Source: a virus (Duplodnaviria; Heunggongvirae; Uroviricota; Caudoviricetes). Taken from it: a stretch of DNA of 36,941 nt. Position numbers and translations under genes: made by a program. This document shows, piece after piece, positions 2,059-26,923 of this stretch (position 1 is its first letter; the number at the start of each line of letters is the position of its first letter). The stretch lies in IMG/VR virus record IMGVR_UViG_2563366846_000004. One strand, 5' to 3'. Below the pieces are notes generated by a model. That model did not search any database and was not told the origin of the DNA. It saw only the letters and a list, made by a program, of their open reading frames with translations.

Positions 2059-4576
<2,518 letters not shown>

Positions 4577-8943: not shown

Positions 8944-8948
8944 CCGTT

Positions 8949-9245: not shown

Positions 9246-9320
9246 GGCTGAACTCCTGAAAATGGCTGTGAAAATATCGCCCGCGAAATGCCAGGCTGAT
9301 TAGGAAAACAGGAAAGGGGG

Positions 9321-9464
9321 TTAGTGAATGCTTTTGCTTGATCTCAGTTTCAGTATTAATATCCATTTTTTATAAGCGTCGACGGCCTCACGAAACATCT
9401 TTTCATCGCCAATAAAAGTGGCGATAGTGAATTTAGTCTGGATAGCCATAATTGTTTGATCCAT
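9321..9464 (-). CDS. kil: Kil host-killing protein, 47 aa
   Basis: Internal Met of ORF 9321..9590 preceded by AGGAG; 47 aa matching lambda Kil by recollection; overlaps cIII by 32 nt as in lambda. Confidence 0.7.
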
Positions 9465-9597
9465 TTTTTGGGACTCCTGGCTGATTAAGTATGTCGATAA
9501 GGCGTTTCCATCCGTCACGTAATTTACGGGTGATTCGTTCAAGTAAAGATTCGGAAGGGCAGCCAGCAACAGGCCACCCTGCAATGGCATATTGCAT
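9433..9597 (-). CDS. cIII: Regulatory protein cIII, 54 aa
   Basis: Hand translation of the minus strand gives [54 protein letters not shown], essentially lambda cIII; below the 60-aa cutoff of the ORF track. Confidence 0.8.
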   Translation of the reverse strand: MQYAIAGWPVAGCPSESLLERITRKLRDGWKRLIDILNQPGVPKNGSNNYGYPD

Positions 9598-9669
9598 GGT
9601 GTGCTCCTTATTTATACATAACGAAAAACGCCTCGAGTGAAGCGTAATTGGTATGCGGTAACGCCGCGC

Positions 9670-10038
9670 TCAGGCGGCCTTGATAGTCATATCATCTGAA
9701 TCAAATATTCCTGATGTATCGATATCGGTAATTCTTATTCCTTCACTACCATCCATTGGAGGCCATCCTTCCTGACCATTTCCATCATTCCAGTCGAACT
9801 CACACACAACACCATATGCATTTAAGTCGCTTGAAATTGCTATAAGCAGAGCATGTTGCGCCAGCATGATTAATACAGCATTTAATACAGAGCCGTGTTT
9901 ATTGAGTCGGTATTCAGAGTCTGACCAGAAATTATTAATCTGGTGAAGTTTTTCCTCTGTCATTACGTCATGGTCAATTTCAATTTCTATTGATGCTTTC
10001 CAGTCGTAATCAATGATGTATTTTTTGATGTTTGACAT
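9670..10038 (-). CDS. ea10: Ea10-like early protein, 122 aa
   Basis: 122 aa, between cIII and ral as lambda ea10. Confidence 0.6.
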   Translation of the reverse strand: MSNIKKYIIDYDWKASIEIEIDHDVMTEEKLHQINNFWSDSEYRLNKHGSVLNAVLIMLAQHALLIAISSDLNAYGVVCEFDWNDGNGQEGWPPMDGSEGIRITDIDTSGIFDSDDMTIKAA

Positions 10039-10220
10039 CTATTCATATCCTCATAGATAAAAAATCGCCCTCACACTGGAGGGCAAAGAAGATTTCCAAT
10101 AATCAGAACAAGTCGGCTCCTGTTTAGTTACGAGCGACATTGCTCCGTGTATTCACTCGTTGGAATGAATACACAGTGCAGTGTTTATTCTGTTATTTAT
10201 GCCAAAAATAAAGGCCACTA

Positions 10221-10421
10221 TCAGGCAGCTTTGTTGTTCTGTTTACCAAGTTCTCTGGCAATCATTGCCGTCGTTCGTATTGCCCATTTATCGACATATT
10301 TCCCATCTTCCATTACAGGAAACATTTCTTCAGGCTTAACCATGCATTCCGATTGCAGCTTGCATCCATTGCATCGTTTGAATTGTCCACACCATTGATT
10401 TGTATCAATAGTCGTAGTCAT
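10221..10421 (-). CDS. ral: Restriction alleviation protein Ral, 66 aa
   Basis: 66 aa, Cys-containing; matches lambda Ral by recollection and position. Confidence 0.75.
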   Translation of the reverse strand: MTTTIDTNQWCGQFKRCNGCKLQSECMVKPEEMFPVMEDGKYVDKWAIRTTAMIARELGKQNNKAA

Positions 10422-10634
10422 ACGGATAGTCCTGGTATTGTTCCATCACATCTTGAGGATGCTCTTCGAACTCTTCAAATTCTTCTTCCATATATCACCT
10501 TAAATAGTGGATTGCGGTAGTAAAGATTGTGCCTGTCTTTTAACCACATCAGGCTCGGTGGTTCTCGTGTACCCCTACAACGAGAAATCGGATAAACTCT
10601 ATTCACCCCTACAGAGAGCAAAAGAGAAACGCCG

Positions 10635-11216
10635 ATGAACAACTCATGGTGGCAGGAACTAATGCATTTTTTCCTGCAAGGAATGACACTTAAACAGTTG
10701 ATTCATATGCTAATCATCCTGATCATATTGATTATTGTTATGCCGGTAAGCGTAAAAGAATGGATAAACCTGCATAATCCAGAAATCCTTCCTCATTACT
10801 GGATGTATTACATCCTGTTGTTTTGCGTTAGCTATGTGCTTAACGGCGTTGTTAATTCCGCTTATCACGCTGTGACTGAAAGAATTGAGGTATTCGCTGC
10901 TCAGAAGCGCAAATCTAAAGAAGAAAAATATGTGCAAGATTTGTTTGATTCGTTAACTCTTGGAGAAAGAGCGTATTTGGCATTCGCTGTAGCCGCTAAT
11001 AACCAGCTACAAACGGAAAAGGGCGCTCATGAATCAATTTCATTGCTCAAAAAAGGACTCCTCGTTCGAAGGCCTCCTGCTGTTGGATATCCTGATACCG
11101 ACCGTTTCGTTATCCCTGAAAGCTATAGACATGAGTGCTACATTAGGTTTGCCGGGAAGGCAGACAGCCTTATGGATGAACTTATCGCTCAGGATAAGCA
11201 TGGCAAAAACAAGTAA
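10635..11216 (+). CDS. sieB: Superinfection exclusion protein B, membrane protein, 193 aa
   Basis: Rightward gene embedded between ral and N as lambda sieB; hydrophobic N-terminal segments; AT-rich. Confidence 0.7.
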   Translation: MNNSWWQELMHFFLQGMTLKQLIHMLIILIILIIVMPVSVKEWINLHNPEILPHYWMYYILLFCVSYVLNGVVNSAYHAVTERIEVFAAQKRKSKEEKYVQDLFDSLTLGERAYLAFAVAANNQLQTEKGAHESISLLKKGLLVRRPPAVGYPDTDRFVIPESYRHECYIRFAGKADSLMDELIAQDKHGKNK

Positions 11217-11232
11217 TTAGCAAATGAATTTA

Positions 11233-11505
11233 TCATCTCGCCGTCAGTTGTTTTGATTTCCGGTAGCCTGCCGCGTAAAGAGCTACGTTCGGAAGACAAG
11301 TTGAACCTTCATATTTTCTGGTCAACGTTGTCAGAGTTATCACTTCTGCTCTCATTGCTGGTTTGAGCTTGCATTGCAAGACCACTCGTGAAGGGGTTGG
11401 CCTGTGTAGCTTGTCGGAGCTGATCGCCTCCTGACTTTGCAGATTTGCGCGACGAGCTCTACGGCGAGAAGCTGCGGTGCCTTTAAATTCTGTTTTTCTG
11501 GACAT
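11233..11505 (-). CDS. N: N-type transcription antitermination protein, about 90 aa
   Basis: Arginine-rich motif GTAASRRRARRANLQ near the N-terminus; start at internal Met preceded by GGGAGGA; sits between pL/nutL and sieB. Confidence 0.7.
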   Translation of the reverse strand: MSRKTEFKGTAASRRRARRANLQSQEAISSDKLHRPTPSRVVLQCKLKPAMRAEVITLTTLTRKYEGSTCLPNVALYAAGYRKSKQLTAR

Positions 11506-11604
11506 GGATTCCTCCCGAATAAACTTTGGCGATGCAATCTCGAAGCTCCTCCTGAGACGGTTGCTTCGGCATTGCATCCCACAGCTTATGTGGTTGGGTG
11601 ATCT

Positions 11605-11648
11605 GGCTTTTCAGCCACGTAGTCGAGAGTCGACGTTGTTTAAAGAGC
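11605..11648 (-). promoter_or_regulatory. nutL: Putative nutL: boxA-like GCTCTTTAA plus boxB-like hairpin GGCUGAAAAGCC on the leftward transcript
   Basis: On the minus strand, boxA-like at 11640-11648, a 23-nt spacer, then a stem-loop at 11605-11616; a parallel arrangement lies just after cro (nutR). Confidence 0.45.
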
Positions 11649-11907
11649 CTGCCAGTCTGTTCCATTTGGCTTCCAGCGTCCTGCTGACGGTTAAATAGTA
11701 CGATATGTACTTTACAAGATCAATACAATTTGTTGTAAGTTGGCGTGGTTTTTTATAACGCTTTGTATTTAATAGTGTTGTTTTTTAGCGTGGATGTATT
11801 GCCTCGGCGATGTAAGGAGAGATCAGAATTGCGTGGTTTAGTGGGTTGCATCTATTTATTTTTCAATAAATATAATTGGTTATGTGTTTTTAGGTGGGCG
11901 AACGTGA

Positions 11908-11936
11908 GGCAAAGAAAACCCGGCGCTGAGGCCGGG
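11908..11936 (-). terminator. Rho-independent terminator ending the cI-proximal operon (analogous to lambda tImm)
   Basis: Perfect stem CCCGGC/GCCGGG (11919-11924 and 11931-11936), 6-nt loop, followed on the minus strand by GTTTTCTTT. Confidence 0.55.
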
Positions 11937-11941
11937 TTGTA

Positions 11942-12694
11942 TTATGCTGCAAGTCTCTTAACCCAAGTCTCTCTTTTGGAGAATGGTAGAACTTGGCTTG
12001 ATTCATGGAAGAGTAAGGAGAGTTGTTGCATTTGATCACCAATTGCTTCGCTGTCTATAACAACAAATCTGTTGTTATACTCCTCACTTGAAGCTTTAAG
12101 ATCAATTAGTTTCCCAAGCAATGAGTAAGCACTATTCCAGCTTCCTCCGTGTTTCACGCTTGATGTAAAAACGTATTTAGGTATGTCGGTTTTTATTGTT
12201 ACAGGGACGGTAATTTGATGTCCACTCAAGCCATATACGTTTTCACGAAGAGAAAGTGCGTCTCTAAGCTCTGTGTGATATAGATAATCAATAACCATAC
12301 TTTCAAACTTTTCAGCTTGAACTGGCTGATACCAGTCTAACGACAAAGTTGATGCGAGTATACCAGCTCTAATTATGTTCGATGTAATCGCACCGACATC
12401 CTTTTCTGTTGCCCAAGCAATGATTTCTCCTCGAGCATTGAGTTCTGCGCCTTCTTTAAGCAGTAATTGTCGTATCTCATCAAGTCGTTTTTTGGTAAGC
12501 GAGATCCCTCTTGCCTCCATATTCATTAAGGCATCGCATCTGTCACTAACTAAATACCTACCATTGACTTCACGGATAAAGGCACCGACATGCTCTCCAT
12601 CATCACAGTAAGTGAATGGACTGATAATTCTCAAGGTCTTGCCTATTGGATGGCATTCGAAACCTAGTTGTGAGATCACTGTTGAGCACATCAT
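11942..12694 (-). CDS. Uncharacterized protein, 250 aa; second gene of the cI-linked two-gene operon in the rexAB position
   Basis: ATG overlaps the stop of the upstream gene (ATGA); AT-rich; no transmembrane segment or motif that I recognise; followed by a terminator. Confidence 0.6.
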   Translation of the reverse strand: MMCSTVISQLGFECHPIGKTLRIISPFTYCDDGEHVGAFIREVNGRYLVSDRCDALMNMEARGISLTKKRLDEIRQLLLKEGAELNARGEIIAWATEKDVGAITSNIIRAGILASTLSLDWYQPVQAEKFESMVIDYLYHTELRDALSLRENVYGLSGHQITVPVTIKTDIPKYVFTSSVKHGGSWNSAYSLLGKLIDLKASSEEYNNRFVVIDSEAIGDQMQQLSLLFHESSQVLPFSKRETWVKRLAA

Positions 12695-13248
12695 ATTCCA
12701 AACCCCATTTGCCCCGACTCATCTTCAAGCGGTAAAGGTATTCTCCCAGAGTAAGTTATGTTCAGATGTTTACAGAAGTAATTCCAATACCCTACCAGGT
12801 CATCTGGGTTTATGTCATCTTCGATTGGAAACGCTATTCTATCACTATAGTATCCAGCTTCTTCATAGTATACATGGTAGTGAGCACCGTAAATGATATC
12901 TTGGTACTTCGGATGATCGACCTTGTAACTATTCGTGTGTTTGTCAAAGTGATAGGTATCTACCGCGAAAACCCTCTTGTTATGATAGAAAGCAATAATA
13001 TTTATTTTAGGGTAAGAAATCGGGTCATCAGGTTCTGAATCCTGATCTGGTTTCCATTTCAGTTCAAACTTTAGCCCTTGTATAGGTATACAATCCTCAT
13101 CCAAGGGGATGATATGGGCTTGTAGCCACATATCAGAGCGACTTGGTTTCTGTTTCCATTTAACGCCAGAAAAGTTAACTATTTTTTTACAATAAAGTAC
13201 TTTATCAACTTCTACTTGGCTTGGCTGATAATCATCTATTTTTGCCAA
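12691..13248 (-). CDS. Uncharacterized acidic protein, about 185 aa; first gene of the cI-linked operon
   Basis: Starts 39 nt downstream of the cI stop on the same strand with no intervening hairpin; start codon appears to be TTG at 13248 with a weak upstream AGGGCGG, next in-frame ATG is 39 codons downstream; no recognisable motif. Confidence 0.55.
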   Translation of the reverse strand: MAKIDDYQPSQVEVDKVLYCKKIVNFSGVKWKQKPSRSDMWLQAHIIPLDEDCIPIQGLKFELKWKPDQDSEPDDPISYPKINIIAFYHNKRVFAVDTYHFDKHTNSYKVDHPKYQDIIYGAHYHVYYEEAGYYSDRIAFPIEDDINPDDLVGYWNYFCKHLNITYSGRIPLPLEDESGQMGFGI

Positions 13249-13287
13249 TGTTTACCGCCCTGTAAATTGTAGATAAAAGTGGTTTCA

Positions 13288-13947
13288 TCACCCAAACGTC
13301 TCTTCAGGCCATTGGCTGGCGATAACTTTCCCCACAACGGAACAACTCTCATTGCATGGGATCATTGGGTATTGTGGGTTTAGTGGCTGTAGAAACACCT
13401 GACCGCTATCCCTGATCAGTTTCTTGAAGGTAAATTCATCACCACCAAGTCTGGCTATGCAGAAATCGCCGGGCTCAACAGCTTGCTCAGGGTCAACCAG
13501 AATTAACATCCCGTCAGGAAAGCTGGGTTTGGAACCTGTTGGTGCGGTCATTGAGTTACCTTCAACCTCAAGCCAGAATGCAGAGTCACTGGCTTTTTTG
13601 GTTGTGCTTACCAATCTCTCCGCATCGCCTTTGGTAAAGGTTCTGAGTTCTGGAGAGAACATCCCAGCCTGAACATGAGAAAAAACAGGGTACTCATATT
13701 GTTTTTTAACTGGGGCCGATGAGTATTCGCCAACAGGTGAAAATGTCCCGTCGTGGTTGAATGATATGTTATCAATACCAAGGTATTTAAACACCACACC
13801 AATATCACTAAGAGATGGATGACGAGATCCGCGCAACCAGTGTCCAATCCCACCCTGCGTCATACCTAGCTCTTCGGCTAACTTCTCTTGAGTTATGCCG
13901 AGCTCTTTCATTCTGGATCTAGCCAGTTCATACCATTTCATTTTCAT
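13288..13947 (-). CDS. cI: cI repressor, S24 LexA-like, with a lambda-type C-terminal domain and a divergent N-terminal HTH domain
   Basis: C-terminal roughly 100 residues match lambda cI by recollection; N-terminal HTH ([21 protein letters not shown]) differs from lambda; start at internal Met of the track ORF. Confidence 0.85.
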
Positions 13948-14058
13948 GTCCTTATTATTACGCTCTGTACTGGAACCATCCATGCACAATGTGTATTTTT
14001 ACTTGTATTCGCAAAGTACATATTGTATTTTTTTATTCGTGTTTACTATGGAGGGCAT
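13948..14058. promoter_or_regulatory. Divergent cI/cro control region (oR, pRM, pR) with dyad-symmetric candidate operators
   Basis: Dyads CACAATGTG (about 13985-13993), TACTTGTATTCGCAAAGTA (14000-14018) and GTACATATTGTA (14016-14027); a related GTACGATATGTAC lies upstream of N at 11698-11710. Confidence 0.45.
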
Positions 14059-14274
14059 ATGAGCAACCTACGAAAATATCGAGAGTCACTGAATATCTCT
14101 CAAACAACACTTGCTAAGGCAGTTGGATGCACACAGGGAGCTATCGGACATTGGGAATCTGGTCGTCGCTTCCCAGACCTTAAAACATGCCGTGCTCTTG
14201 TTGCGTGCCTAAACAAGTTAGGCGCAAAAGTCAGTCTTGATGACGTGTTCCCGCCGGAACACAAAGCCGCTTAA
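14059..14274 (+). CDS. cro: Cro-like HTH repressor, 71 aa
   Basis: ATG preceded by GGAGGG; HTH motif QTTLAKAVGCTQGAIGHWESG; divergent from cI. Confidence 0.7.
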   Translation: MSNLRKYRESLNISQTTLAKAVGCTQGAIGHWESGRRFPDLKTCRALVACLNKLGAKVSLDDVFPPEHKAA

Positions 14275-14284
14275 TAAGCGGATC

Positions 14285-14329
14285 CGCTCTTTGTAACAAC
14301 GGACATTCGTCCTACGTCGCTGAAAAGCG
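14285..14329 (+). promoter_or_regulatory. nutR: Putative nutR: boxA-like CGCTCTTTG plus boxB-like hairpin UCGCUGAAAAGCGA
   Basis: boxA-like at 14285-14293 immediately after the cro stop; stem-loop at 14316-14329 sharing the core GCUGAAAAGC with the nutL hairpin. Confidence 0.45.
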
Positions 14330-14415
14330 AGTTCCAAGATATCTGACCAACTAAGGCCATATGCGTTTCCACGCATACCTTTCAACTAACTATTCACTAT
14401 TGGAAATCTTAAGAA

Positions 14416-14712
14416 ATGGAAAGAACAAGTTACAGCAAACTATCACAGCGTGACGTTGATCGCGCAGAAACAGATTTACTTATCAATCTGTCAGCTATTA
14501 CCCAGCGCGGTCTGGCAAAGATGATTGGCTGTCATGAATCGAAGATAAGCAGAACGGACTGGAGATTTATTGCTTCGGTCTTGTGTGCTTTCGGAATGGC
14601 ATCAGACATCAGTCCGATTAGCAGGGCTTTTAAGTATGCGCTTGATGGACTCACCAATAAAAAACGCCCGGCGGCAACCGAGCGTTCTGAACAAATCCAG
14701 ATGGAATTCTGA
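14416..14712 (+). CDS. cII: Transcriptional activator cII, 98 aa
   Basis: C-terminal LTNKKRPAATERSEQIQMEF matches lambda cII by recollection; N-terminal part divergent. Confidence 0.8.
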   Translation: MERTSYSKLSQRDVDRAETDLLINLSAITQRGLAKMIGCHESKISRTDWRFIASVLCAFGMASDISPISRAFKYALDGLTNKKRPAATERSEQIQMEF

Positions 14713-14744
14713 GGTCATTACTGGATCAATCCACAGGAGTCATT

Positions 14745-15644
14745 ATGACAAATACAGCAAAAATACTCAACTTCTGCAGAGGTAACTTTGCCAAACAGGA
14801 GCGTAATGTGGCAGATCTCGATGATGGTTACGCCAGACTATCAAATATGCTGCTTGAGGCTTATTCAGGCGCAGATCTGACCAAGCGACAGTTTAAAGTG
14901 CTGCTTGCCATTCTGCGTAAAACCTATGGATGGAATAAACCAATGGACAGAATCACCGATTCTCAACTTAGCGAGATTACAAAGTTACCCGTCAAACGGT
15001 GCAATGAAGCCAAGTTAGAACTCGTCAGAATGAATATTATCAAGCAGCAAGGCGGCATGTTTGGACCAAATAAAAACATCTCAGAATGGTGTATCCCTCA
15101 AAACGAGGGAAAATCCCCTAAAACGAGGGATAAAACATCCCTCAAATTGGGGGATTGCTATCCCTCAAAACAGGGGGACACAAAAGACACTATTACAAAA
15201 GAAAAAAGAAAAGATTATTCGTCAGAGAATTCTGGCGAATCCTCTGACCAGCCAGAAAACGACCTTTCTGTGGTGAAACCGGATGCTGCAATTCAGAGCG
15301 GCAGCAAGTGGGGGACAGCAGAAGACCTGACCGCCGCAGAGTGGATGTTTGACATGGTGAAGACCATCGCGCCATCAGCCAGAAAACCGAATTTTGCAGG
15401 GTGGGCTAACGATATCCGCCTGATGCGTGAACGTGACGGACGTAACCACCGCGACATGTGCGTGCTGTTCCGCTGGGCATGCCAGGACAACTTCTGGTCC
15501 GGTAACGTGCTAAGTCCGGCCAAACTCCGCGACAAGTGGACCCAACTCGAAATCAACCGTAACAAGCAACAGGCAGGCGTGACAGCTAGCAAACCAAAAC
15601 TCGACCTGACAAACACAGACTGGATTTACGGGGTGGATTTATGA
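14745..15644 (+). CDS. O: Replication initiator O, 299 aa
   Basis: 299 aa; contains the ori iterons internally; near-identical to lambda O by recollection. Confidence 0.9.
   Translation: MTNTAKILNFCRGNFAKQERNVADLDDGYARLSNMLLEAYSGADLTKRQFKVLLAILRKTYGWNKPMDRITDSQLSEITKLPVKRCNEAKLELVRMNIIKQQGGMFGPNKNISEWCIPQNEGKSPKTRDKTSLKLGDCYPSKQGDTKDTITKEKRKDYSSENSGESSDQPENDLSVVKPDAAIQSGSKWGTAEDLTAAEWMFDMVKTIAPSARKPNFAGWANDIRLMRERDGRNHRDMCVLFRWACQDNFWSGNVLSPAKLRDKWTQLEINRNKQQAGVTASKPKLDLTNTDWIYGVDL
15092..15230 (+). repeat. ori: Replication origin: four roughly 19-bp iterons followed by an AT-rich stretch, inside O
   Basis: Iterons TATCCCTCAAAACGAGGGA, AAATCCCCTAAAACGAGGGA, AACATCCCTCAAATTGGGGGA, CTATCCCTCAAAACAGGGGGA at about 15092-15178, then A-rich 15179-15230. 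Confidence 0.8.
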
Positions 15645-16342
15645 AAAACATCGCCGCACAGATGATTAACTTTGACCGTGAGCAGATGCGTCGGATCGCC
15701 AACAACATGCCGGAACAGTACGACGAAAAGCCTCAGGTACAGCAGGTAGCGCAGATCATCAATGGTGTGTTCAGCCAGTTACTGGCAACTTTCCCGGCGA
15801 GCCTGGCTAACCGGGACCAGAACGAACTGAACGAAATCCGCCGCCAGTGGGTTCTGGCTTTCCGGGAAAACGGGATCACCACAATGGAACAGGTTAACGC
15901 AGGAATGCGCGTAGCCCGTCGGCAGAATCGACCATTCCTGCCATCACCCGGGCAGTTTGTTGCATGGTGCCGGGAAGAAGCATCCGTTATCGCCGGACTG
16001 CCAAACGTCAGCGAGCTGGTTGATATGGTTTACGAGTATTGCCGGAAGCGAGGCCTGTATCCGGATGCAGAGTCTTATCCGTGGAAATCGAACGCGCACT
16101 ACTGGCTGGTTACCAACCTGTACCAGAACATGCGGGCCAATGCGCTGACTGACGCGGAATTACGACGCAAGGCTGCCGATGAACTGACCTGTATGACAGC
16201 GCGAATTAACCGTGGTGAGACGATACCTGAACCAGTAAAACAACTTCCTGTCATGGGCGGCAGACCTCTAAATCGTGTTCAGGCGCTGGCGAAGATCGCA
16301 GAAATTAAAGCTAAGTTAGGACTGAAAGGAGCAAGTGTATGA
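15641..16342 (+). CDS. P: Replication protein P (helicase loader), 233 aa
   Basis: 233 aa, overlaps the O stop; matches lambda P by recollection. Confidence 0.9.
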   Translation: MKNIAAQMINFDREQMRRIANNMPEQYDEKPQVQQVAQIINGVFSQLLATFPASLANRDQNELNEIRRQWVLAFRENGITTMEQVNAGMRVARRQNRPFLPSPGQFVAWCREEASVIAGLPNVSELVDMVYEYCRKRGLYPDAESYPWKSNAHYWLVTNLYQNMRANALTDAELRRKAADELTCMTARINRGETIPEPVKQLPVMGGRPLNRVQALAKIAEIKAKLGLKGASV

Positions 16343-16629
16343 CGGGCAAAGAGGCAATTATTCATTACCTGGGGACGCATAATAGCTTCTGTGCGCCGGA
16401 CGTTGCCGCGCTAACAGGCGCAACAGTAACCAGCATAAATCAGGCCGCGGCTAAAATGGCACGGGCAGGTCTTCTGGTTATCGAAGGTAAGGTCTGGCGA
16501 ACGGTGTATTACCGGTTTGCTACCAAGGAAGAACGGGAAGGAAAGATGAGCACGAACCTGATTTTTAAGGAGTGTCGCCAGAGTGCCACGATGAAACGGA
16601 TATTGGCGGTATATGGAGTTAAAAGATGA
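16339..16629 (+). CDS. ren: Ren protein, 96 aa
   Basis: 96 aa, overlaps the P stop; lambda Ren-like. Confidence 0.75.
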   Translation: MTGKEAIIHYLGTHNSFCAPDVAALTGATVTSINQAAAKMARAGLLVIEGKVWRTVYYRFATKEEREGKMSTNLIFKECRQSATMKRILAVYGVKR

Positions 16630-16654
16630 CCATCTACATCACTGAGCTAATAAC

Positions 16655-16687
16655 AGGCCTGCAGGTAATCGCAGGCCTTTTTATTTG
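16655..16687 (+). terminator. Rho-independent terminator between ren and ninB (tR2-like)
   Basis: Stem AGGCCTGC/GCAGGCCT with 8-nt loop followed by TTTTATTT. Confidence 0.5.
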
Positions 16688-16702
16688 GGGGAGAGGGAAG
16701 TC

Positions 16703-17143
16703 ATGAAAAAACTAACCTTTGAAATTCGATCTCCGGCACATCAGCAAAACGCTATTCACGCAGTACAGCAAATCCTTCCAGACCCAACCAAACCAATCGT
16801 AGTAACCATTCAGGAACGCAACCGCAGCTTAGACCAAAACAGGAAGCTATGGGCCTGCTTAGGTGACGTCTCTCGTCAGGTTGAATGGCATGGTCGCTGG
16901 CTGGATGCAGAAAGCTGGAAGTGTGTGTTTACCGCAGCATTAAAGCAGCAGGATGTTGTTCCTAACCTTGCCGGGAATGGCTTTGTGGTAATAGGCCAGT
17001 CAACCAGCAGGATGCGTGTAAGCGAATTTGCGGAGCTATTAGAGCTTATACAGGCATTCGGTACAGAGCGTGGCGTTAAGTGGTCAGACGAAGCGCGACT
17101 GGCTCTCGAATGGAAAGCGCGATGGGGAGATCGGGCTGCATGA
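16703..17143 (+). CDS. ninB: NinB recombination protein, 146 aa
   Basis: Start MKKLTFEIRSP preceded by a G-rich SD; lambda NinB-like by recollection. Confidence 0.8.
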   Translation: MKKLTFEIRSPAHQQNAIHAVQQILPDPTKPIVVTIQERNRSLDQNRKLWACLGDVSRQVEWHGRWLDAESWKCVFTAALKQQDVVPNLAGNGFVVIGQSTSRMRVSEFAELLELIQAFGTERGVKWSDEARLALEWKARWGDRAA

Positions 17144-17667
17144 CTATCAAATCAAATACGCCAGCACACGACAAGGACTGCTGGCAAACGCCGCTTTGGC
17201 TTTTTGATGCACTGGATATTGAGTTTGGATTCTGGCTGGATTCGGCAGCGAGCGACAAAAATGCTCTGTGCGCTCACTGGCTAACTGAGGACGACGACGC
17301 GCTCAATTCTGAGTGGGTAAGCCACGGTGCAATCTGGAATAACCCACCGTACAGCAATATCAGGCCGTGGGTGGAAAAAGCCGCTGAGCAGTGTATACAA
17401 CAGCGACAGACGGTAGTGATGCTTGTGCCAGAGGATATGTCTGTCGGATGGTTCAGCAAGGCTCTGGAGAGTGTTGACGAAGTTCGTATTATCACTGATG
17501 GACGGATTAATTTTATCGAACCATCGACAGGGCTGGAGAAGAAGGGAAACAGCAAAGGCTCCATGCTGCTGATTTGGCGACCGTTCATCAGTCCTCGACG
17601 GATGTTTACTACCGTATCCAAAGCGGCATTGATGGCGATCGGGCAGGGCGTCAGGAGGGCTGCATGA
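17140..17667 (+). CDS. Phage DNA N6-adenine methyltransferase (Dam-like), about 175 aa
   Basis: Catalytic motif NPPY (WNNPPYS); ATGA overlap with ninB at the start and with ninE at the end; occupies the lambda ninC position. Confidence 0.75.
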
Positions 17668-17840
17668 GACGACAGCGACGAAGCATCACCGACATAATCT
17701 GCGAAAACTGCAAATACCTTCCAACGAAACGCTCCAGAAATAAACGCAAGCTAATCCCAAAAGAATCTGACGTAAAAACCTTCAATTACACAGCCCACCT
17801 GTGGGATATCCGGTGGCTAAGATATCGTGCGAGGAAATGA
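17664..17840 (+). CDS. ninE: NinE protein, 58 aa
   Basis: Internal Met of the track ORF ([10 protein letters not shown]) with ATGA coupling; lambda NinE-like. Confidence 0.6.
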
Positions 17841-18184
17841 CAATGGATTATTCACAGTTAAGTGATTTTGAAATTAACAGAATGGTAGGAGACATAATTT
17901 TTAAAGGCCTTTGGGCAAGTAAACCGGAAACATCAGGGAATAACACCAACAAATGGTATTACGGAAATGCTGATACAACTTTTGAGCCATTAAATCATTT
18001 GCCTGACTACTGCAATGATCCGAGCGCTTCATGGCCGATTATTGAGAAATACAGGATTTCTATCTTAGACCAGTTAACTGAATGGTGTGTGGATGCAAAA
18101 GGCGTAAGCCCAATATTTGATACCAGACCTCTCCGCGCCGCCATGATTGTCTTTCTCCTGATGCAGGAGGCCAATAATGCTTAG
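17837..18184 (+). CDS. Hypothetical nin-region protein, 115 aa
   Basis: ATGA-coupled ORF; no recognisable motif. Confidence 0.45.
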
Positions 18185-18371
18185 CCCATCTCAATCCCTT
18201 CAATACCTGAAAGAAAGCATAGAGCGGGCTTCAATGTGCACAGAGTGGATTCTATCTAGGTTTAGCGCATACAGAAGATTGCCGGTAAAGGGCATGCCAA
18301 GCAAGTCGATGCTGCATATGCAAAAGAATGCGCGCTGGAAGGTATGGCGAGAACACAGGTTATGTGGCTGA
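18177..18371 (+). CDS. NinF-like protein, 64 aa; N-terminal 20 residues NinF-like, remainder divergent
   Basis: N-terminus [18 protein letters not shown] resembles lambda NinF by recollection; downstream sequence does not. Confidence 0.4.
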
Positions 18372-18390
18372 AAGAGGGGGTTATTAAGGC

Positions 18391-18753
18391 GTGAATACCT
18401 ACAGCATCACATTACCCTGGCCTCCGAGCAATAATCGCTATTACCGCCATAATCGCGGGCGCACGCACGTCAGCGCAGAGGGGCAGGCATACCGCGATAA
18501 CGTCGCCCGAATCATTAAAAACGCAATGCTGGATATCGGCCTGGCTATGCCTGTGAAAATCCGCATTGAGTGCCACATGCCGGATCGCCGTCGCCGTGAC
18601 CTGGATAATCTGCAAAAAGCCGCTTTTGACGCACTCACTAAAGCAGGTTTCTGGCTGGATGATGCTCAGGTCGTTGATTACCGCGTTGTGAAGATGCCTG
18701 TTACCAAAGGTGGGAGGCTGGAACTGACCATCACCGAAATGGGGAATGAATGA
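18391..18753 (+). CDS. rusA: Crossover junction endodeoxyribonuclease RusA (Holliday junction resolvase), 120 aa
   Basis: 120 aa; matches E. coli prophage RusA by recollection. Confidence 0.85.
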
Positions 18754-18890
18754 TGTTTGAGTTTAATATGGCAGAACTTCTTCGCCACCGCTGGGGGCGT
18801 CTGCGCTTATATCGTTTCCTCGGTTCTGTTTTGACCGATTACCGAATACTGAAGAATTACGCCAAAACCCTGACAGGAACAGGAGTATGA
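18750..18890 (+). CDS. Small protein, 46 aa, YlcG-like
   Basis: Hand translation [46 protein letters not shown]; overlaps the rusA stop; below the ORF-track cutoff. Confidence 0.4.
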
Positions 18891-18975
18891 AGTCAGAGAT
18901 AACAATCAACTAATACTGTTTTGTTGATTTTTGCTTGTAATTGGCGTTCTGGTCTGATTTTTGTGGAGTAAGTTG

Positions 18976-19359
18976 ATGCGTGATATTCAGATGGTTCTTG
19001 AGCGTTGGGGTGCGTGGGCGGCTAATAATCATGAAGATGTGACCTGGTCGTCCATTGCCGCCGGTTTTAAGGGATTAATTCCTTCAAAAGTAAAATCTCG
19101 CCCGCAATGTTGTGACGATGACGCGATGATCATTTGCGGGTGCATGGCCCGTCTGAAAAAGAACAACAGCGATTTACACGATTTATTAGTAGATTATTAT
19201 GTATGTGGTATGACATTCATGTCACTGGCAAGTAAGCATTGCTGCTCGGATGGTTATATCGGGAAAAGGTTACAGAAGGCTGAGGGCATAATTGAAGGGA
19301 TGTTAATGGCATTAGATATCCGGTTAGATATGGATATCGTTGCTAATAATTCTAATTGA
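18976..19359 (+). CDS. Q: Late-gene antiterminator Q, phage 82 / QuuD type, 127 aa
   Basis: Cys-rich zinc-binding region ([17 protein letters not shown]); position just upstream of the late region; start at ATG 18976. Confidence 0.8.
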
Positions 19360-19391
19360 TATGCAATTGTTTACTAAAAGTTATTAAAAAT

Positions 19392-19409
19392 GGGGCGTGG
19401 AAACGCCCC
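19392..19409 (-). terminator. Hairpin with a U-tract on the minus strand, candidate terminator for the porin transcript
   Basis: GGGGCG/CGCCCC stem, followed on the minus strand by ATTTTTAATAA. Confidence 0.4.
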
Positions 19410-19495
19410 CAAAATAAAGGGTAATATATAACAGAAGGTTTATATAGTAAGAAGCAAGGTAGTGCTTCTAAAGGAAGTGGCTTGAGGGCTCCACT

Positions 19496-19536
19496 TATAT
19501 GTTGCGGAGGCAAAGCCTCCCGCAACATATCTTTTT
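19496..19536 (+). terminator. Strong hairpin followed by CTTTTT on the plus strand, candidate terminator for Q-region readthrough
   Basis: About 14-bp stem (ATATGTTGCGGAGG / CCTCCCGCAACATAT) then TCTTTTT; lies between the convergent Q and porin genes. Confidence 0.5.
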
Positions 19537-19547
19537 CGTAAGTCAGA

Positions 19548-20630
19548 TTAGAACTGATAAACCAGACCTACAGCGACGATGTCGTCGGTATCAATACCAG
19601 CTGTTTTGGTAAACTTACTATCGTCAATTAAGTTGATTTTGTAATCAACAAAAGTGGACATGTTTTTATTAAAGTAGTAAGTAGCACCGACATCGACATA
19701 CTTGACTAAGTCTCGGTCACCATGAACACCAAGGTCTTTACCTTTTGACTGAAGGTAAGCAACAGATGGACGCAGACCGAAGTCAAACTGATATTGTGCT
19801 ACTGCTTCAAAGTTTTGTGCTTTGTTTGCAATATGGTTATTACCAAAAACGGTCATATTCTGAGTTTCAGAATATGTGGTAGCCAGATAGATATTGTTCG
19901 CATCATATTTCAGGCCTGCAGCCCATACTTCCGCATTTTTGCCGGAGGCATTGAATTTGCTCTTACCATAGGCGACCTGACCGTCAGTGCGATCTGATTT
20001 AGCATAGGTTGCACCCACGCCGAATCCTTCATACTCATAAGTAGTGGAGAAACCGAAACCATCACCATTGGCTTCAGTTACGTCAGTGCGGTCATTTTTA
20101 CCCTGATACTGAGCAGCAAAGTTCAGGCCATCGACCAGACCAAAGAAGTCGTTGTTACGATAAGTTGCAACACCAGTAGTGCGACCAGTCATGAACACAT
20201 CTGTTTGGGTCCAGGTATCACCACCGAATTCTGGCAGAACGTCAGTCCACGCACCGATGTCGTATGCTACACCGTAGTTACGGCCGTAATCGATTGAGCC
20301 GTAATCACCAAATTTCAGGCCTGCAAATGCAAGACGGGTTTTGTCTTTGGAAGAACCTTGAGATTCAGCACGGTTGCCTTTGAATTCATATTCCCACTGA
20401 CCGAAACCAGTCAGTTGATCGTTGATTTGGGTTTCACCTTTGAAGCCAAGACGGGCATAAGTAGTATCACCATCATCTGCATCATTAGAGGAGAAGTAGT
20501 GCTTGGCATTAACTTTCCCGTATAGATCCAGCTTGTTACTGTCTTTATTATAAATTTCAGCTGCCTGAGCAGACATCGCCATCAGTACTGATGCAGCTAC
20601 AGCAGAAATTGCCACTGTTAATTTTTTCAT
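19548..20630 (-). CDS. nmpC: Outer-membrane general porin, OmpC/NmpC/Lc family, about 360 aa precursor
   Basis: Signal peptide [23 protein letters not shown], beta-barrel porin sequence ending in a C-terminal Phe (VYQF); sits between Q and the lysis cassette on the opposite strand, as nmpC does in DLP12; AT-rich upstream region. Confidence 0.85.
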
Positions 20631-20949
20631 TGTACGCCCTTTTTTTGAACTATTATTAAAAAATGATGTCACTGCGCGATAAATATTCATCTAATCAATG
20701 TGATTATTTCAAGATGTAAGTTTTAGTTTCTCATTTAATTTGTGAAGTAGATCTCTATTTTTATCTGAACCTTTTCTATCTAATCCTATTCATGGCTCTT
20801 GTCTGAACAAAAATAAATCTATTAGCTAATTTATATTAATGGCACTTATTTATAAGTGCTCTATAATTCTTTAGCTTAATTTAAACAAACTAAAAATAAC
20901 ATCGGAAATTATTAACTGGTTATTTGTTGAAGTTTTCTTATGCATTTGT

Positions 20950-21035
20950 GGTGGTGTTTTGAACACTCGGTGGCATTCTCACAAATATCATTTAGTAGTT
21001 TACGTACGTAAAAAATTGGTTATGCTGTTAAGAGT
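20950..21035 (+). promoter_or_regulatory. Candidate late promoter region (pR'-like) with Q-utilisation site
   Basis: Possible -35 TTTACG (20999-21004) and -10 TATGCT (21021-21026) about 35 nt upstream of a terminator hairpin; weak match, position-based. Confidence 0.3.
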
Positions 21036-21058
21036 GGTTACTTCGTCACACAGCTTAA

Positions 21059-21089
21059 ACCCGCCGTCGAGCGGGTTTTTCCATTTTTT
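21059..21089 (+). terminator. Rho-independent terminator upstream of the holin gene (tR'-like)
   Basis: Stem ACCCGC/GCGGGT with 6-nt loop followed by TTTTTCCATTTTTT. Confidence 0.5.
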
Positions 21090-21218
21090 GAGTCTCGATA
21101 TTAGCTGATAACCCAATACCTGAGTTATTCACTGACTCCGAATCTGTTACGTTTCTGCCTTTATTGCGATACGTAGTATCCCCTTAATTTACACCCGCTT
21201 TGTCTGCGAGGTGGGGTT

Positions 21219-21434
21219 ATGAAATCCATGGATAAGTTAACAACGGGTGTCGCCTATGGTACCTCAGCAGGTAGTGCCGGGTACTGGTTTTTACAGTTGC
21301 TCGATAAAGTCACGCCCTCACAGTGGGCGGCAATAGGTGTGCTGGGTAGCCTGGTATTTGGCCTGCTGACGTACCTGACAAACCTTTATTTCAAGATTAA
21401 AGAAGATAAGCGCAAGGCTGCGAGAGGTGAATAA
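21219..21434 (+). CDS. S: Class II holin, phage 21 S-type, 71 aa, with dual-start MKSM motif
   Basis: 71 aa; two hydrophobic segments; N-terminal MKSM gives two possible starts (holin and antiholin); followed directly by the endolysin. Confidence 0.8.
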
Positions 21435-21931
21435 TGCCTCCATCATTACGAAAAGCCGTTGCTGCTGCTATTGGTGGCGGAGCAATTGCTATAGCATCAG
21501 TGTTAATCACTGGCCCAAGTGGTAACGATGGTCTGGAAGGTGTCAGCTACATACCATACAAAGATATTGTTGGTGTATGGACTGTATGTCACGGGCATAC
21601 AGGAAAAGACATCATGCTCGGTAAAACGTATACCAAAGCAGAATGCAAAGCCCTCCTGAATAAAGACCTTGCCACGGTCGCCAGACAAATTAACCCGTAC
21701 ATCAAAGTCGATATACCGGAAACAATGCGCGGCGCTCTTTACTCATTCGTTTACAACGTGGGTGCTGGCAATTTCAGAACATCGACGCTTCTTCGCAAAA
21801 TAAACCAGGGCGATATCAAAGGCGCATGTGATCAGCTACGTCGCTGGACATATGCTGGCGGTAAGCAATGGAAAGGTCTCATGACTCGTCGTGAGATTGA
21901 GCGTGAAATCTGTTTGTGGGGTCAGCAATGA
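21434..21931 (+). CDS. R: SAR endolysin (phage lysozyme with signal-anchor-release N-terminus), 165 aa
   Basis: Gly/Ala-rich hydrophobic N-terminus [18 protein letters not shown] followed by a lysozyme domain; start overlaps the holin stop. Confidence 0.85.
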
Positions 21932-22389
21932 ACAGAGTAACCGCGATTATCTCCGCTCTGGTTATCTGCATCATCGTCTGCCTGTCATGGGCTGTTAATC
22001 ATTACCGTGATAACGCCATTACCTACAAAGCCCAGCGCGACAAAAATGCCAGAGAACTGACGCTGGCGAACGCGGCAATTACTGACATACAGATGCGTCA
22101 GCGTGATGTTGCTGCGCTCGATGCAAAATACACGAAGGAGTTAGCTGATGCGAAAGCTGAAAATGATGCTCTGCGTGATGATGTTGCCGCTGGTCGTCGT
22201 CGGTTGCACATCAAAGCAGTCTGTCAGTCAGTGCGTGAAGCCACCACCGCCTCCGGCGTGGATAATGCAGCCTCCCCCCGACTGGCAGACACCGCTGAAC
22301 GGGATTATTTCACCCTCAGAGAGAGGCTGATCACTATGCAAAAACAACTGGAAGGAACCCAGAAGTATATTAATGAGCAGTGCAGATAG
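21928..22389 (+). CDS. Rz: Rz inner-membrane spanin, 153 aa
   Basis: N-terminal transmembrane segment then coiled-coil; ATGA overlap with the endolysin stop. Confidence 0.8.
22148..22330 (+). CDS. Rz1: Rz1 outer-membrane lipoprotein spanin, 60 aa, embedded in the +1 frame of Rz
   Basis: Lipoprotein signal with lipobox VVVGC, proline-rich mature part (PPPPP); lies entirely inside Rz. Confidence 0.75.
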
Positions 22390-22420
22390 AGCTGCCCATA
22401 TCGATGGGCAACTCATGCAA

Positions 22421-22714
22421 TTATTGTGAGCAATACACACGCGCTTCCAGCGGAGTATAAATGCCTAAAGTAATAAAACCGAGCAATCCATTTACGAATG
22501 TTTGCTGGGTTTCTGTTTTAACAACATTTTCTGCGCCGCCACAAATTTTGGCTGCATCAACAGTTTTCTCCTGTCCAATTCCCGAAACGAAGAAGTGATG
22601 GGTGATGGTTTCCTTTGGTGTTACTGCTGTCGGTTTGTTTCCAACAGTAAACGTCTGTTGAGCACATCCTGTAATAAGCATTGCCAGAGCGGCAGAAAAC
22701 AACATTTTTTTCAT
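22421..22714 (-). CDS. bor: Bor serum-resistance lipoprotein, 97 aa
   Basis: Signal peptide with lipobox LITGC; 97 aa; opposite strand just after Rz as in lambda. Confidence 0.8.
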   Translation of the reverse strand: MKKMLFSAALAMLITGCAQQTFTVGNKPTAVTPKETITHHFFVSGIGQEKTVDAAKICGGAENVVKTETQQTFVNGLLGFITLGIYTPLEARVYCSQ

Positions 22715-23196
22715 CTTATTATCCTGCATTGTTAAAAACGGCAGAATCCTATGTGACAACAATTAAACGATAGTTAAATGGATTGATGAAAATTAAAACT
22801 ATATAGGTGTACGCTCAGACTATTGGAGGAAGTTGGGGACACTCAGAATCCTGTGGAATGAAATAAACCGGTCTATCCGTCTATTACCCTTTTAGCTGCG
22901 CTGTATCGTCGCCGTATTCCCGCATTAACCATGACCGTAGCCCGACGGGGAATTCCTTCTGCGTGAGTGTGCGGGAATAATTAAAAACGATGCACACCGG
23001 GTTTTTACCGCGTTAATGATTCGCGGGTTTATCCCGGTGCGATGGTGGAAGAAACAGGAAGCTGTATTACAGAAAGTGCTACTACTGTATCCCGATGCGA
23101 TGTATGTAATGTGAGTCAGATAATGGCACAGGATGTGGTGATGTGGCAGTCTGGAACACAGGATATATTGTCAGAATAAGACCCGTAGGAATAAAA

Positions 23197-23523
23197 ATGA
23201 AAAGACGCCTTTTACTACTTTTTCTGTTATCTGTCCTGGCAGTGGGATGCTCGCAGCAAAAAGCTGATGAGCCCCGGCAATTAGTGACGGTGTATCCACG
23301 ATATCCGGAATATGCTGCAGCAAATTATATCAAGGGGCTGGTTGAGGTTAAGTTCGATATTGGTGCTGATGGGACTGTGACACGGATCGTTTTTCTCCGC
23401 TCAGAGCCTCATAATTTGTTTCGTGATGAAGTGGTGAAGGCCATGGCGAAATGGCGATTTGAAAAGAATCGCCCCTGTCAGGGAGTGAAGAGACAATTTA
23501 TCTTTACGCCGTCACGTCCTTGA
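23197..23523 (+). CDS. Putative envelope lipoprotein, about 108 aa
   Basis: Signal peptide MKRRLLLLFLLSVLAVGC with lipobox; position matches the putative envelope protein gene after bor in lambda and DLP12. Confidence 0.5.
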   Translation: MKRRLLLLFLLSVLAVGCSQQKADEPRQLVTVYPRYPEYAAANYIKGLVEVKFDIGADGTVTRIVFLRSEPHNLFRDEVVKAMAKWRFEKNRPCQGVKRQFIFTPSRP

Positions 23524-23645
23524 TGCTTCCAGGTAGAGAGGGGCTGGAAGCAGGAGAAAAATGAAAGAGCCAGCGGTTATATTTTTGTCATGGCTGACGA
23601 GGAATGATGGAAGAAGGCGTTGTATGCCACACAACGCCTCACTGT

Positions 23646-23999
23646 TCATTTCTTCTTTTTCTCTGGTGGAACCCGATGAATAAGAGTTGCACTGGTTTCC
23701 GATGAGATGGCGATATACTCGGGCAAAGTATGCTGGCAGTTTTCCAACTGGTCAAAAATACCTGCTCTCGTCTGTTGCAATGCCTGCAGCATGCGGCGGC
23801 AATGCGCCTTGCTTTTACTAACCATCTTTCCTTCCTCTATCAGTCGCTGCGTGAACTCATCATGGAATACCAGGTAAATGCGGATGTTATCGGTTTTGGC
23901 TACGCAGCATAGTACAAAACGGACAGGTGCATCCCGGGACGGGGGAGGCGTCACATGTCCCTGTGATGGTTGTTCCGGGTAATGTACTGTGTGGGGCAT
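23646..23999 (-). CDS. Hypothetical protein; start uncertain, possibly only the C-terminal 59 residues are real
   Basis: ORF in the bor-cos interval; no support beyond the open frame. Confidence 0.25.
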   Translation of the reverse strand: MPHTVHYPEQPSQGHVTPPPSRDAPVRFVLCCVAKTDNIRIYLVFHDEFTQRLIEEGKMVSKSKAHCRRMLQALQQTRAGIFDQLENCQHTLPEYIAISSETSATLIHRVPPEKKKK

Positions 24000-24286
24000 A
24001 AAAATGTCCGATAATTTTACTTTCTACCGCAGTTAGTTGATTCGTTGGTCCTGGTAGCACATTGGGCGAGGATTTAAATGCCAGGCAACTGAAGGATGAT
24101 GTCGCAAGGGAGATAGCGAGAATATTTCTGATTTTCATTTGATGATGCCTCTGTGTGAAATGACGGTAAACGACGCACTTGTGCCGGCACATAATAGCAA
24201 GCACCATAATAGATCAGATTCGATTCTTGCTGTAAGTGATAATTATTCTCGTTTTCGGGTCCTTTCCGTCGATCCAACAGGTTACG

Positions 24287-24298
24287 GGGCGGCGACCT
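24287..24298 (+). other. cos: cosN: 12-nt cohesive-end sequence GGGCGGCGACCT, with cosB between here and Nu1
   Basis: Exact lambda cohesive-end 12-mer preceded by CAGGTTACG and followed by CGCGG, about 180 bp upstream of Nu1. Confidence 0.75.
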
Positions 24299-24474
24299 CG
24301 CGGTTTTTCACTATTTATGAAAATTTTTCAGGGAAAATCGTGTCGGTACTTCTCGAATATAACTTTTTGTTTTTTTTAATATTGCATCCGTAAAGGTCCG
24401 ACATGAAAGTGTCCGAAAATGCCTTTTTCTGGCGTTTTCATGTCGGGCCTTGTATTTGATAATGGGTTGTTTTC

Positions 24475-25023
24475 ATGAAGGTTAATAAAAAGAGGCTTGC
24501 CGAAATTTTCAACGTGGACCCGCGGACGATTGAACGCTGGCAGTCTCAGGGACTCCCTTGCGCCTCCAAAGGTAGTAAGGGCATTGAATCTGTATTTGAT
24601 ACTGCCATGGCAATTCAGTGGTATGCGCAGAGGGAAACTGATATCGAAAACGAAAAGCTCCGCAAAGAACTGGACGATTTGCGTGCGGCAGCGGAGTCAG
24701 ATTTACAACCCGGCACCATTGACTATGAACGCTACCGGCTCACAAAAGCGCAGGCAGATGCGCAGGAACTGAAAAATGCCCGTGAAGACGGAGTAGTGCT
24801 GGAAACTGAACTGTTTACCTTCATTCTGCAACGTGTGGCACAGGAGATTTCGGGGATACTTGTGCGTGTGCCGTTGACATTACAGCGTAAATATCCGGAC
24901 ATTTCACCATCACACCTTGATGTGGTGAAAACTGAAATCGCGAAAGCCTCCAATGTTGCAGCTAAGGCCGGTGAAAACGTGGGCGGGTGGATCGATGATT
25001 TCAGACGCGCAGAAGGCAGCTAA
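24475..25023 (+). CDS. Nu1: Terminase small subunit Nu1, 182 aa
   Basis: Lambda Nu1-like along its length by recollection ([39 protein letters not shown]). Confidence 0.85.
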
Positions 25024-26923
25024 TGCAGCCGGTGCGATAGCTACAGGGCTTTTATCTCTCATTATTCCTGTTCCACTGACGACAGTTCAGTGGGCCAATA
25101 AACATTATTACCTTCCTAAAGAGTCGTCTTATACCCCGGGGCGATGGGAAACACTGCCGTTTCAGGTTGGCATCATGAACTGTATGGGCAACGATCTGAT
25201 TCGCACGGTTAACCTGATTAAATCTGCCCGTGTTGGTTATACAAAGATGTTGCTGGGAGTGGAGGCTTATTTTATTGAGCATAAATCACGCAACAGCCTT
25301 CTTTTTCAGCCCACGGACTCAGCTGCTGAAGATTTTATGAAATCTCATGTTGAGCCAACGATAAGGGATGTTCCTGCATTGCTGGAGCTGGCTCCATGGT
25401 TCGGAAGAAAACACCGCGATAATACGCTCACCCTGAAGCGTTTTTCCTCCGGTGTGGGGTTCTGGTGTCTGGGTGGTGCGGCAGCAAAAAACTACCGTGA
25501 AAAATCCGTGGATGTGGTCTGTTATGACGAGCTTTCCTCGTTCGAACCGGATGTTGAAAAAGAGGGTTCGCCAACCCTGCTGGGGGATAAACGTATTGAG
25601 GGCTCTGTATGGCCAAAATCCATTCGCGGCTCGACGCCTAAAATCAAAGGCTCCTGCCAGATCGAAAAAGCCGCTAACGAGTCGGCACACTTCATGCGTT
25701 TTTATGTGCCCTGTCCGCACTGTGGGGAGGAGCAGTATCTGAAATTTGGCGATGATGCCTCGCCTTTCGGTCTTAAGTGGGAGAAGAATAAGCCAGAAAG
25801 TGTTTTCTACCTTTGTGAGCATCATGGCTGTGTGATCCATCAGTCTGAGCTTGACCAGAGTAACGGGCGGTGGATCTGTGAAAACACGGGCATGTGGACC
25901 CGTGACGGCCTGATGTTTTTCAGCGCCCGGGGTGATGAAATTCCGCCGCCGCGCTCCATCACTTTCCATATCTGGACGGCGTACAGTCCGTTCACCACCT
26001 GGGTACAGATTGTCTATGACTGGCTGGATGCACTGAAAGATCCCAACGGCCTGAAAACCTTTGTGAACACCACGCTGGGCGAGACCTGGGAAGAGGCTGT
26101 GGGCGAAAAACTCGATCACCAGGTGCTGATGGATAAGGTTGTGCGTTACACGGCGGCGGTGCCTGCCCGGGTGGTTTATCTGACGGCGGGCATTGACTCG
26201 CAGCGAAACCGTTTTGAGATGTATGTCTGGGGATGGGCTCCGGGAGAGGAAGCCTTTCTGGTGGATAAAATCATCATTATGGGGCGTCCCGATGAGGAAG
26301 AGACGCTGTTACGTGTGGATGCGGCGATCAACAAAAAATACCGCCATGCAGACGGAACCGAAATGACCATTTCCCGTGTCTGCTGGGACATCGGGGGGAT
26401 CGATGGCGAAATCGTTTATCAGAGGTCAAAAAAACACGGTGTTTTCCGGGTGCTGCCGGTAAAAGGCGCATCTGTCTATGGCAAGCCGGTGATCACCATG
26501 CCAAAAACCCGCAATCAGCGGGGCGTGTATCTGTGTGAAGTGGGGACGGACACCGCAAAAGAAATTCTCTATGCCCGTATGAAAGCCGATCCCACGCCTG
26601 TGGATGAAGCCACGTCGTATGCTATCCGTTTTCCTGATGATCCGGAGATTTTTTCGCAGACAGAGGCGCAGCAACTGGTCGCGGAAGAGCTTGTGGAGAA
26701 GTGGGAAAAAGGAAAGATGCGTCTGCTGTGGGATAACAAAAAGCGGCGTAACGAAGCGCTGGACTGCCTGGTGTATGCCTACGCGGCATTACGTGTGTCC
26801 GTGCAACGCTGGCAGCTTGATCTGGCTGTACTGGCAAAATCCCGGGAAGAAGAGACGACCCGGCCAACCCTTAAAGAACTGGCAGCGAAGCTGTCCGGAG
26901 GAGTGAATGGTTACAGTCGCTGA
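24995..26923 (+). CDS. A: Terminase large subunit A, about 642 aa
   Basis: Lambda gpA-like throughout by recollection; start placed at ATG 24995 (G-rich SD upstream) to match the lambda N-terminus, the track ORF begins at 24953. Confidence 0.9.

Follow-up and report, generated by a model that had tools for sequence, protein, structure and literature searches.

The dam locus

The gene dam lies between ninB and ninE in the window (the whole 36.9-kb stretch of phage DNA that was analysed), together with the features collected in Table 1. Its ORF of 528 bp starts with an ATG at 17140, ends with the TGA at 17665-17667 and encodes 175 amino acids. When delimited mechanically, the ORF reaches further upstream, to a GTG at 17080; the ATG at 17140 is the annotated start in every matching phage record among those shown, and the alignment of the TIGR01712 profile to the predicted protein (in the following, window Dam) begins at residue 2. 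The ninB stop codon (TGA, 17141-17143) overlaps the dam start codon, and the ninE start codon (ATG, 17664) overlaps the dam stop codon, so that each junction consists of an ATGA (17140-17143 and 17664-17667). The initial annotation had described dam as coupled to ninB and ninE by such overlaps; both are present, and a Pfam scan identified the neighbours as NinB and NinE, the latter being followed by NinX. The same annotation had recognised a methyltransferase ORF by its NPPY motif, and this also stands, with NPPY at residues 68-71 inside a 12-residue stretch (residues 66-77, DNA 17335-17370). An antisense ORF of 115 aa within dam (17274-17621) was taken as a chance occurrence.

Table 1. Coordinates of dam, its sequence motifs and the adjacent features in the window.
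Feature	Position	Strand	Remarks
tR2-like intrinsic terminator	16655..16686	+	Between ren and ninB; G+C-rich hairpin (16655-16678), then T run
ninB	16703..17143	+	Orf recombination mediator; upstream of dam; stop overlaps dam start; PF05772 (1.1e-54)
GGGCTGCATGA, left copy	17133..17143	+	ninB/dam junction; exact 11-bp direct repeat; contains the ATGA overlap
dam	17140..17667	+	175-aa phage N-6-adenine-methyltransferase; PF05869 / TIGR01712
WxTP motif (W15-Q-T17-P18)	17182..17193	+	Directly precedes the N-terminal helix; T17 invariant and P18 conserved in ≥90% (45 members)
DxAA motif (D34-S-A-A37)	17239..17250	+	Assigned as AdoMet-binding motif I; D34 invariant
NPPY (N68-P-P-Y71)	17341..17352	+	Catalytic motif IV; pocket for the flipped target adenine
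G121-R122-x-x-F125 ... G136-N137-x-K-G-S141	17503..17562	+	C-terminal family motifs; two invariant residues (R122, F125) and two conserved in ≥90% (N137, S141)
GGGCTGCATGA, right copy	17657..17667	+	dam/ninE junction; preceded by the AGGAGG Shine-Dalgarno sequence of ninE
ninE	17664..17840	+	Downstream of dam; start overlaps dam stop; PF05322 (1.8e-41)

Family membership and conserved residues

Window Dam matches the Pfam family PF05869 'Dam' with an E-value of 3.7e-65 and 219.1 bits (cut-off 28.1 bits) across profile positions 1-167 of 169, and the NCBIfam equivalog TIGR01712 'phage N-6-adenine-methyltransferase' with 265.6 bits and 1.2e-79 (cut-off 97.05 bits) across positions 1-165 of 165. 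The initial annotation had named a profile search as the means of confirming the methyltransferase family, and these full-length matches above the curated cut-offs provide that confirmation. A chance match was rejected as the source of the assignment, since 219 bits stand against a cut-off of 28 and 266 bits against one of 97. Window Dam also matches phrog_111 'DNA methyltransferase' (8.3e-88), and the wider family comprises 8973 clusters at 50% identity that match at E <= 1e-3.

Conservation was assessed in an alignment of 45 diverse family members that are 32-67% identical to window Dam. Invariant or near-invariant columns are T17, P18, D34, A37, W59, N68, P69, P70, Y71, L95, W104, R122, F125, N137, and S141, and window Dam retains every column that is invariant or conserved in at least 90% of the members. 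The DxAA (AdoMet) motif precedes NPPY, and the C-terminal GRxxF and GNxKGS motifs have a putative role in DNA contact. Comparison of dam with three allelic copies gave dN/dS values of 0.03-0.14, based on only 9-12 differences per pair; at the sequence level this is consistent with purifying selection.

Fold and enzyme class

Window Dam has the class I AdoMet-dependent methyltransferase (Rossmann-like) fold, although confidence in the AF2 model is low near motif I (residues 33-48, pLDDT below 50). Structural comparison placed the mRNA cap enzyme PCIF1 first (8.0), followed by M.TaqI (7.6), CamA (7.4), BseCI (7.2), the Type I M subunits (6.0-6.8), E. coli Dam (5.7), and T4 Dam (4.9). That the best neighbour is an mRNA cap enzyme would favour an RNA methyltransferase; we regard such a non-DNA enzyme, or a decayed and inactive passenger gene, as scarcely credible for dam. 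Neither a single-sequence search of the PDB nor one with the 45-member profile found a solved structure of the Dam family, and the matches to SdiA and Med31 in the PDB search were dismissed as chance matches. Window Dam amounts to a minimal core of the TaqI/EcoKI-like (gamma) type and lacks a target-recognition domain, as its 175 residues leave nothing that could form such a separate domain. Its architecture fits the description of the 'group 2' (EcoKI/TaqI-like) enzymes, which have an N-terminal helix and degenerate helices around strand 3 (PMC4738411).

The D12-class profile PF02086, which represents the alpha class including E. coli Dam, T4 Dam, and DpnM, does not match window Dam. The protein is not homologous to the host Dam and belongs to a different protein lineage. 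Thus, the label 'Dam-like' given in the initial annotation is apt for the reported target, GATC, but misleading with respect to ancestry. Kinship with the nonspecific prophage methyltransferases M.EcoGI and M.EcoGII was also considered and rejected, because these enzymes belong to another family of class beta (for M.EcoGII see PMC7544214), whereas window Dam matched only PF05869 and has DxAA ahead of NPPY instead of the class beta order with motif IV before motif I.

Probable exchange of the dam cassette in the nin region

Homology to lambda breaks off precisely with the ninB stop codon (window 17143, lambda 41084) and restarts at window 17671 (lambda 42097), 8 nt into ninE. Hence, the dam cassette replaces both ninC (290 aa) and ninD (57 aa) of lambda. 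The earlier placement of dam in the lambda ninC slot was correct in that ninC is replaced, but too narrow because these breakpoints include ninD as well. The exact 11-mer GGGCTGCATGA has only two copies in the window, one at each end of dam, and is also present at the ninB/ninC junction of lambda. In phage JEP4 (locus L005, about 1030-1041), ninB is joined straight to ninE via GGGCGGCATGA, forming an 'empty site'. Judging from these sequences, recombination between conserved stretches at gene boundaries appears to have inserted or removed the dam module. Module exchange at such boundaries is a recognised feature of lambdoid mosaicism, of which the dam locus, with its short conserved sequences at the gene borders, would be a clean example. 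Further module swaps are found in the same operon: the nin-region Holliday-junction resolvase (18391-18753) is RusA (PF05866, 6.9e-23) and not the NinG/Rap of lambda, and ninX is located in place of ninF.

Distribution and orphan status

Phages ev207, ev017, PhiR57_1, and PhiR63_2 carry dam with 100% identity over 528 bp, and DNA identity reaches 95% or more in 244 phage records, among them 434, HK140, Sf101, and many dozens of records in which Stx1/Stx2 phages are represented. It was found in 1566 of the 5426 complete E. coli genomes; PGAP labels it 'phage N-6-adenine-methyltransferase' in the E. coli genomes listed, which include Nissle 1917 and the type strain. It is an ordinary, ubiquitous and known gene, called a methyltransferase wherever an annotation is shown. 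As a gene it is a standard, interchangeable module of the nin region that offers little new.

According to the initial annotation dam is an orphan that lacks a restriction partner, and several lines of evidence agree with this view. Both neighbours of dam are nin genes, and when the unassigned ORFs in the 36.9-kb window were compared with Pfam and PADLOC, no signature of a restriction endonuclease or other restriction-modification partner was detected. The annotation of phage PhiR57_1, which is 99.8% identical to window positions 8000-28000, has no restriction enzyme among its entries. The best PADLOC match of window Dam is 'oMTase' (orphan methyltransferase), and motif IV occurs in just one credible ORF of the window.

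Other features of the window

Compared with PhiR57_1, the window contains a 1954-bp insertion at 2623-4576 and a target duplication of 5 bp (positions 1-2622 are the same in both, and the match resumes with window 4577 at PhiR57_1 2618). The insertion encodes an IS21-family pair on the minus strand, which consists of a 340-aa transposase with rve and HTH domains (3468-4490) and its partner, a 260-aa IstB ATPase (2689-3471). It interrupts an EaA-like gene, whose remnant at 2051-2650 has a dATP/dGTP pyrophosphohydrolase domain. A PADLOC match of IstB to 'DrmD' was discarded as probably an AAA+ cross-match. Two overlapping genes on the minus strand (11942-12694 and 12691-13248) are situated between N and cI, in the interval occupied by rexA/rexB in lambda, and code for a DUF1828 (250 aa) and a DUF6978 (185 aa) protein. 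This pair has weak PADLOC matches to the candidate defence pair PDC-M24B (4.7e-10) and PDC-M24A (4.8e-4) and may represent a prophage-encoded exclusion system; sieB is located close to it (10635-11216). Just downstream of Q and in opposite orientation, the minus strand carries a gene for a 380-aa porin (19548-20690), which is annotated as OmpD/NmpC/OmpC-like in matching phages and looks like a moron (lysogenic-conversion) gene.

Target specificity

The closest link to a characterised enzyme leads through orf32 of phage VT2-Sakai, whose product shares 174 of 175 amino acids with window Dam. The sole difference is residue 51 (D in the window, A in orf32), which falls in a column that is variable in the family. 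In VT2-Sakai, orf32 is placed between the homologues of ninB (nin146) and ninE (nin60). A 'VT-2 dam methyltransferase', M.EcoVT2Dam, was reportedly cloned by Radlinska and Bujnicki in 2001 (PMID 11720311). When the complete VT2-Sakai genome was scanned in all six frames, orf32 was the only ORF with motif IV ([DNS]PP[YFWH]), and it is also the only one annotated as 'similar to DNA methylase'; on these grounds it very probably is M.EcoVT2Dam, and the idea that another VT2-Sakai gene encodes this enzyme was rejected because the scan yielded orf32 only. From this identification we infer that cloning and characterisation have already been carried out on a copy that deviates from window Dam in a single residue.

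The specificity of M.EcoVT2Dam is known second-hand, from a citing paper that gives GATC as its target (PMC6602927, citing Radlinska & Bujnicki 2001). M.EcoT1Dam also modifies GATC (PMC4996451), and the prophage relative M.Btr190III methylates GATC but displayed marked off-target activity when cloned (PMC4996451). The target of window Dam is most likely GATC, a specificity taken from the literature on M.EcoVT2Dam and from distant relatives; the off-target methylation by a cloned relative means that strict GATC specificity is not assured. An adenine methyltransferase of relaxed or different specificity, which modifies GATC and related sites or is nearly nonspecific, might serve as a broad anti-restriction 'vaccine'. 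This would suit a 175-aa core without a target-recognition domain, and prophage and plasmid methyltransferases often are promiscuous (PMC4659465). However, PMC6602927 reports M.EcoVT2Dam, by our assignment 99% identical to window Dam, simply as GATC-specific, the same applies to T1 Dam (PMC4996451), and the known nonspecific prophage enzymes M.EcoGI and M.EcoGII are of a different class (beta). We therefore consider relaxed specificity unlikely. The missing target-recognition domain would also permit a loose or context-dependent preference for GATC, for example at replication forks or on ssDNA, with a function in broader anti-defence methylation, in the control of phage DNA transactions (such as recombination via the adjacent ninB/rusA), or in MutH avoidance. 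Such a preference seems rather improbable to us; if it existed, Dam would be more than a duplicate of the host Dam.

Operon position and expression

The dam gene is part of the early-right (pR) operon and is located downstream of a tR2-like terminator (Table 1). Phage 434 has an annotated terminator at the matching place, and the stretch shares 98% identity with lambda, where this terminator is tR2. With this terminator upstream, expression of dam would depend on N antitermination, and by analogy dam would be a delayed-early gene that is repressed by CI in the lysogen. A search for an internal promoter that could drive dam in the lysogen found 7 promoter-like sites versus 8.7 expected from shuffled sequence. 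Phage Phi24B has the identical gene, which was detected in cultures of lysogens and responded to induction with a significant change in expression (PMC3342100).

Alternatively, window Dam could be an epigenetic regulator in the lysogen, which supplements the host Dam and stabilises lysogeny or alters host expression. The Phi24B copy was picked up by a protein screen of lysogen cultures, and the authors of that study speculate that it supports lysogeny (PMC3342100); the same paper cites a report that the maintenance of 933W lysogeny requires the host Dam. Lysogen cultures, however, always contain spontaneously induced cells, the Phi24B copy showed a significant change of expression on induction, and both prophage methyltransferases of strain EC958 were judged inactive by RT-PCR in methylome studies (PMC4659465, PMC4996451). 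Moreover, GATC is already methylated by the host, and dam sits inside the early-right operon behind the tR2-like terminator, with promoter-like sites not above background. A regulatory function in the lysogen thus appears very unlikely. The initial annotation had offered a change of host regulation in the lysogen as one option, and the pR operon, the terminator, and the response of Phi24B to induction speak against this as the main role.

Proposed function

We consider it likely that dam encodes an active stand-alone DNA N6-adenine methyltransferase, which is predicted to target GATC and to top up the GATC methylation of phage DNA during lytic growth. Its family, intact residues, near-identity to orf32, orphan status, and operon position come from this analysis and the GATC target from the literature; timing and role are what we infer. 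Window Dam, from the small phage 'Dam' family to which T1 Dam and M.EcoVT2Dam also belong, would be a bare Rossmann-type catalytic core, composed of the N-terminal WxTP helix, DxAA as putative AdoMet motif I, and NPPY as motif IV that would hold the flipped adenine. It would reach the site of the host Dam, GATC, from a different protein lineage. By analogy with lambda, Dam would appear in infected or induced cells once N antitermination has set in, and it might add GATC methylation to fast-replicating phage DNA and so complete the methylation of the progeny. The methylated progeny DNA would then be protected in the next host from m6A-sensitive restriction enzymes that cut GATC, and might avoid nicking by MutH, as has been proposed for T2/T4 Dam (PMC8541194).

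Incomplete methylation of phage DNA has been described. Only ~46% of the GATC sites of lambda, which lacks this dam gene, were methylated after growth on a wild-type host (bioRxiv 10.1101/2025.08.29.673000), and the virion DNA of P22 and lambda is reported to be undermethylated, perhaps as the host enzyme cannot keep pace with replication (PMC8022706). However, raised GATC methylation left the lambda mutation rate unchanged (bioRxiv 10.1101/2025.08.29.673000), which argues against a benefit related to mismatch repair. The window contains 124 GATC sites, and their observed/expected ratio of 0.69 indicates neither avoidance nor enrichment, as it falls in the range of other 4-bp palindromes (GGCC 0.68, TATA 0.72); sequence composition thus gives no support to a GATC-centred role. 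Relative to a Markov-model expectation, CTAG is strongly depleted in the window (8 observed versus 24.9 expected, ratio 0.32), much more so than GATC and all other 4-bp palindromes. Window Dam would be partly redundant in a Dam+ host. What a phage would gain from a GATC methyltransferase in such a host, and how a core that lacks a recognition domain would read GATC, are of interest here.

Comparison with known methyltransferases

The gamma-class or 'group 2' enzymes (M.TaqI, EcoKI HsdM, CamA, BseCI, and the eukaryotic PCIF1) have large target-recognition domains or separate specificity subunits and comprise 323-750 aa or several subunits, whereas window Dam consists of the 175-aa core alone and shares 11-17% sequence identity with them. 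E. coli Dam and T4 Dam, of the alpha class (PF02086), have in common with window Dam the reported GATC target, the N6-methyladenine chemistry, and the orphan status. T1 Dam (237 aa) matches PF05869 at 1.7e-70, is only 33% identical to window Dam, and shares with it the motif order, the reported GATC target, and the nature of an orphan phage enzyme. Unlike window Dam, it has an N-terminal extension of ~45 residues and an insertion of ~14 residues ahead of GRxxF, and T1 is a virulent phage. M.EcoVT2Dam, assigned here to orf32, resembles window Dam in its 528-bp gene length, the position between ninB and ninE, the overlapping start and stop codons, and 174 of 175 amino acids. Identical or near-identical copies of its gene are found in Phi24B, HK97, 434, HK140, Sf101, and many Stx phages. 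The carriers themselves differ, VT2-Sakai being a short-tailed Stx phage and the phage of the window being lambda-like, with lambda head and tail genes, rusA, and Q.
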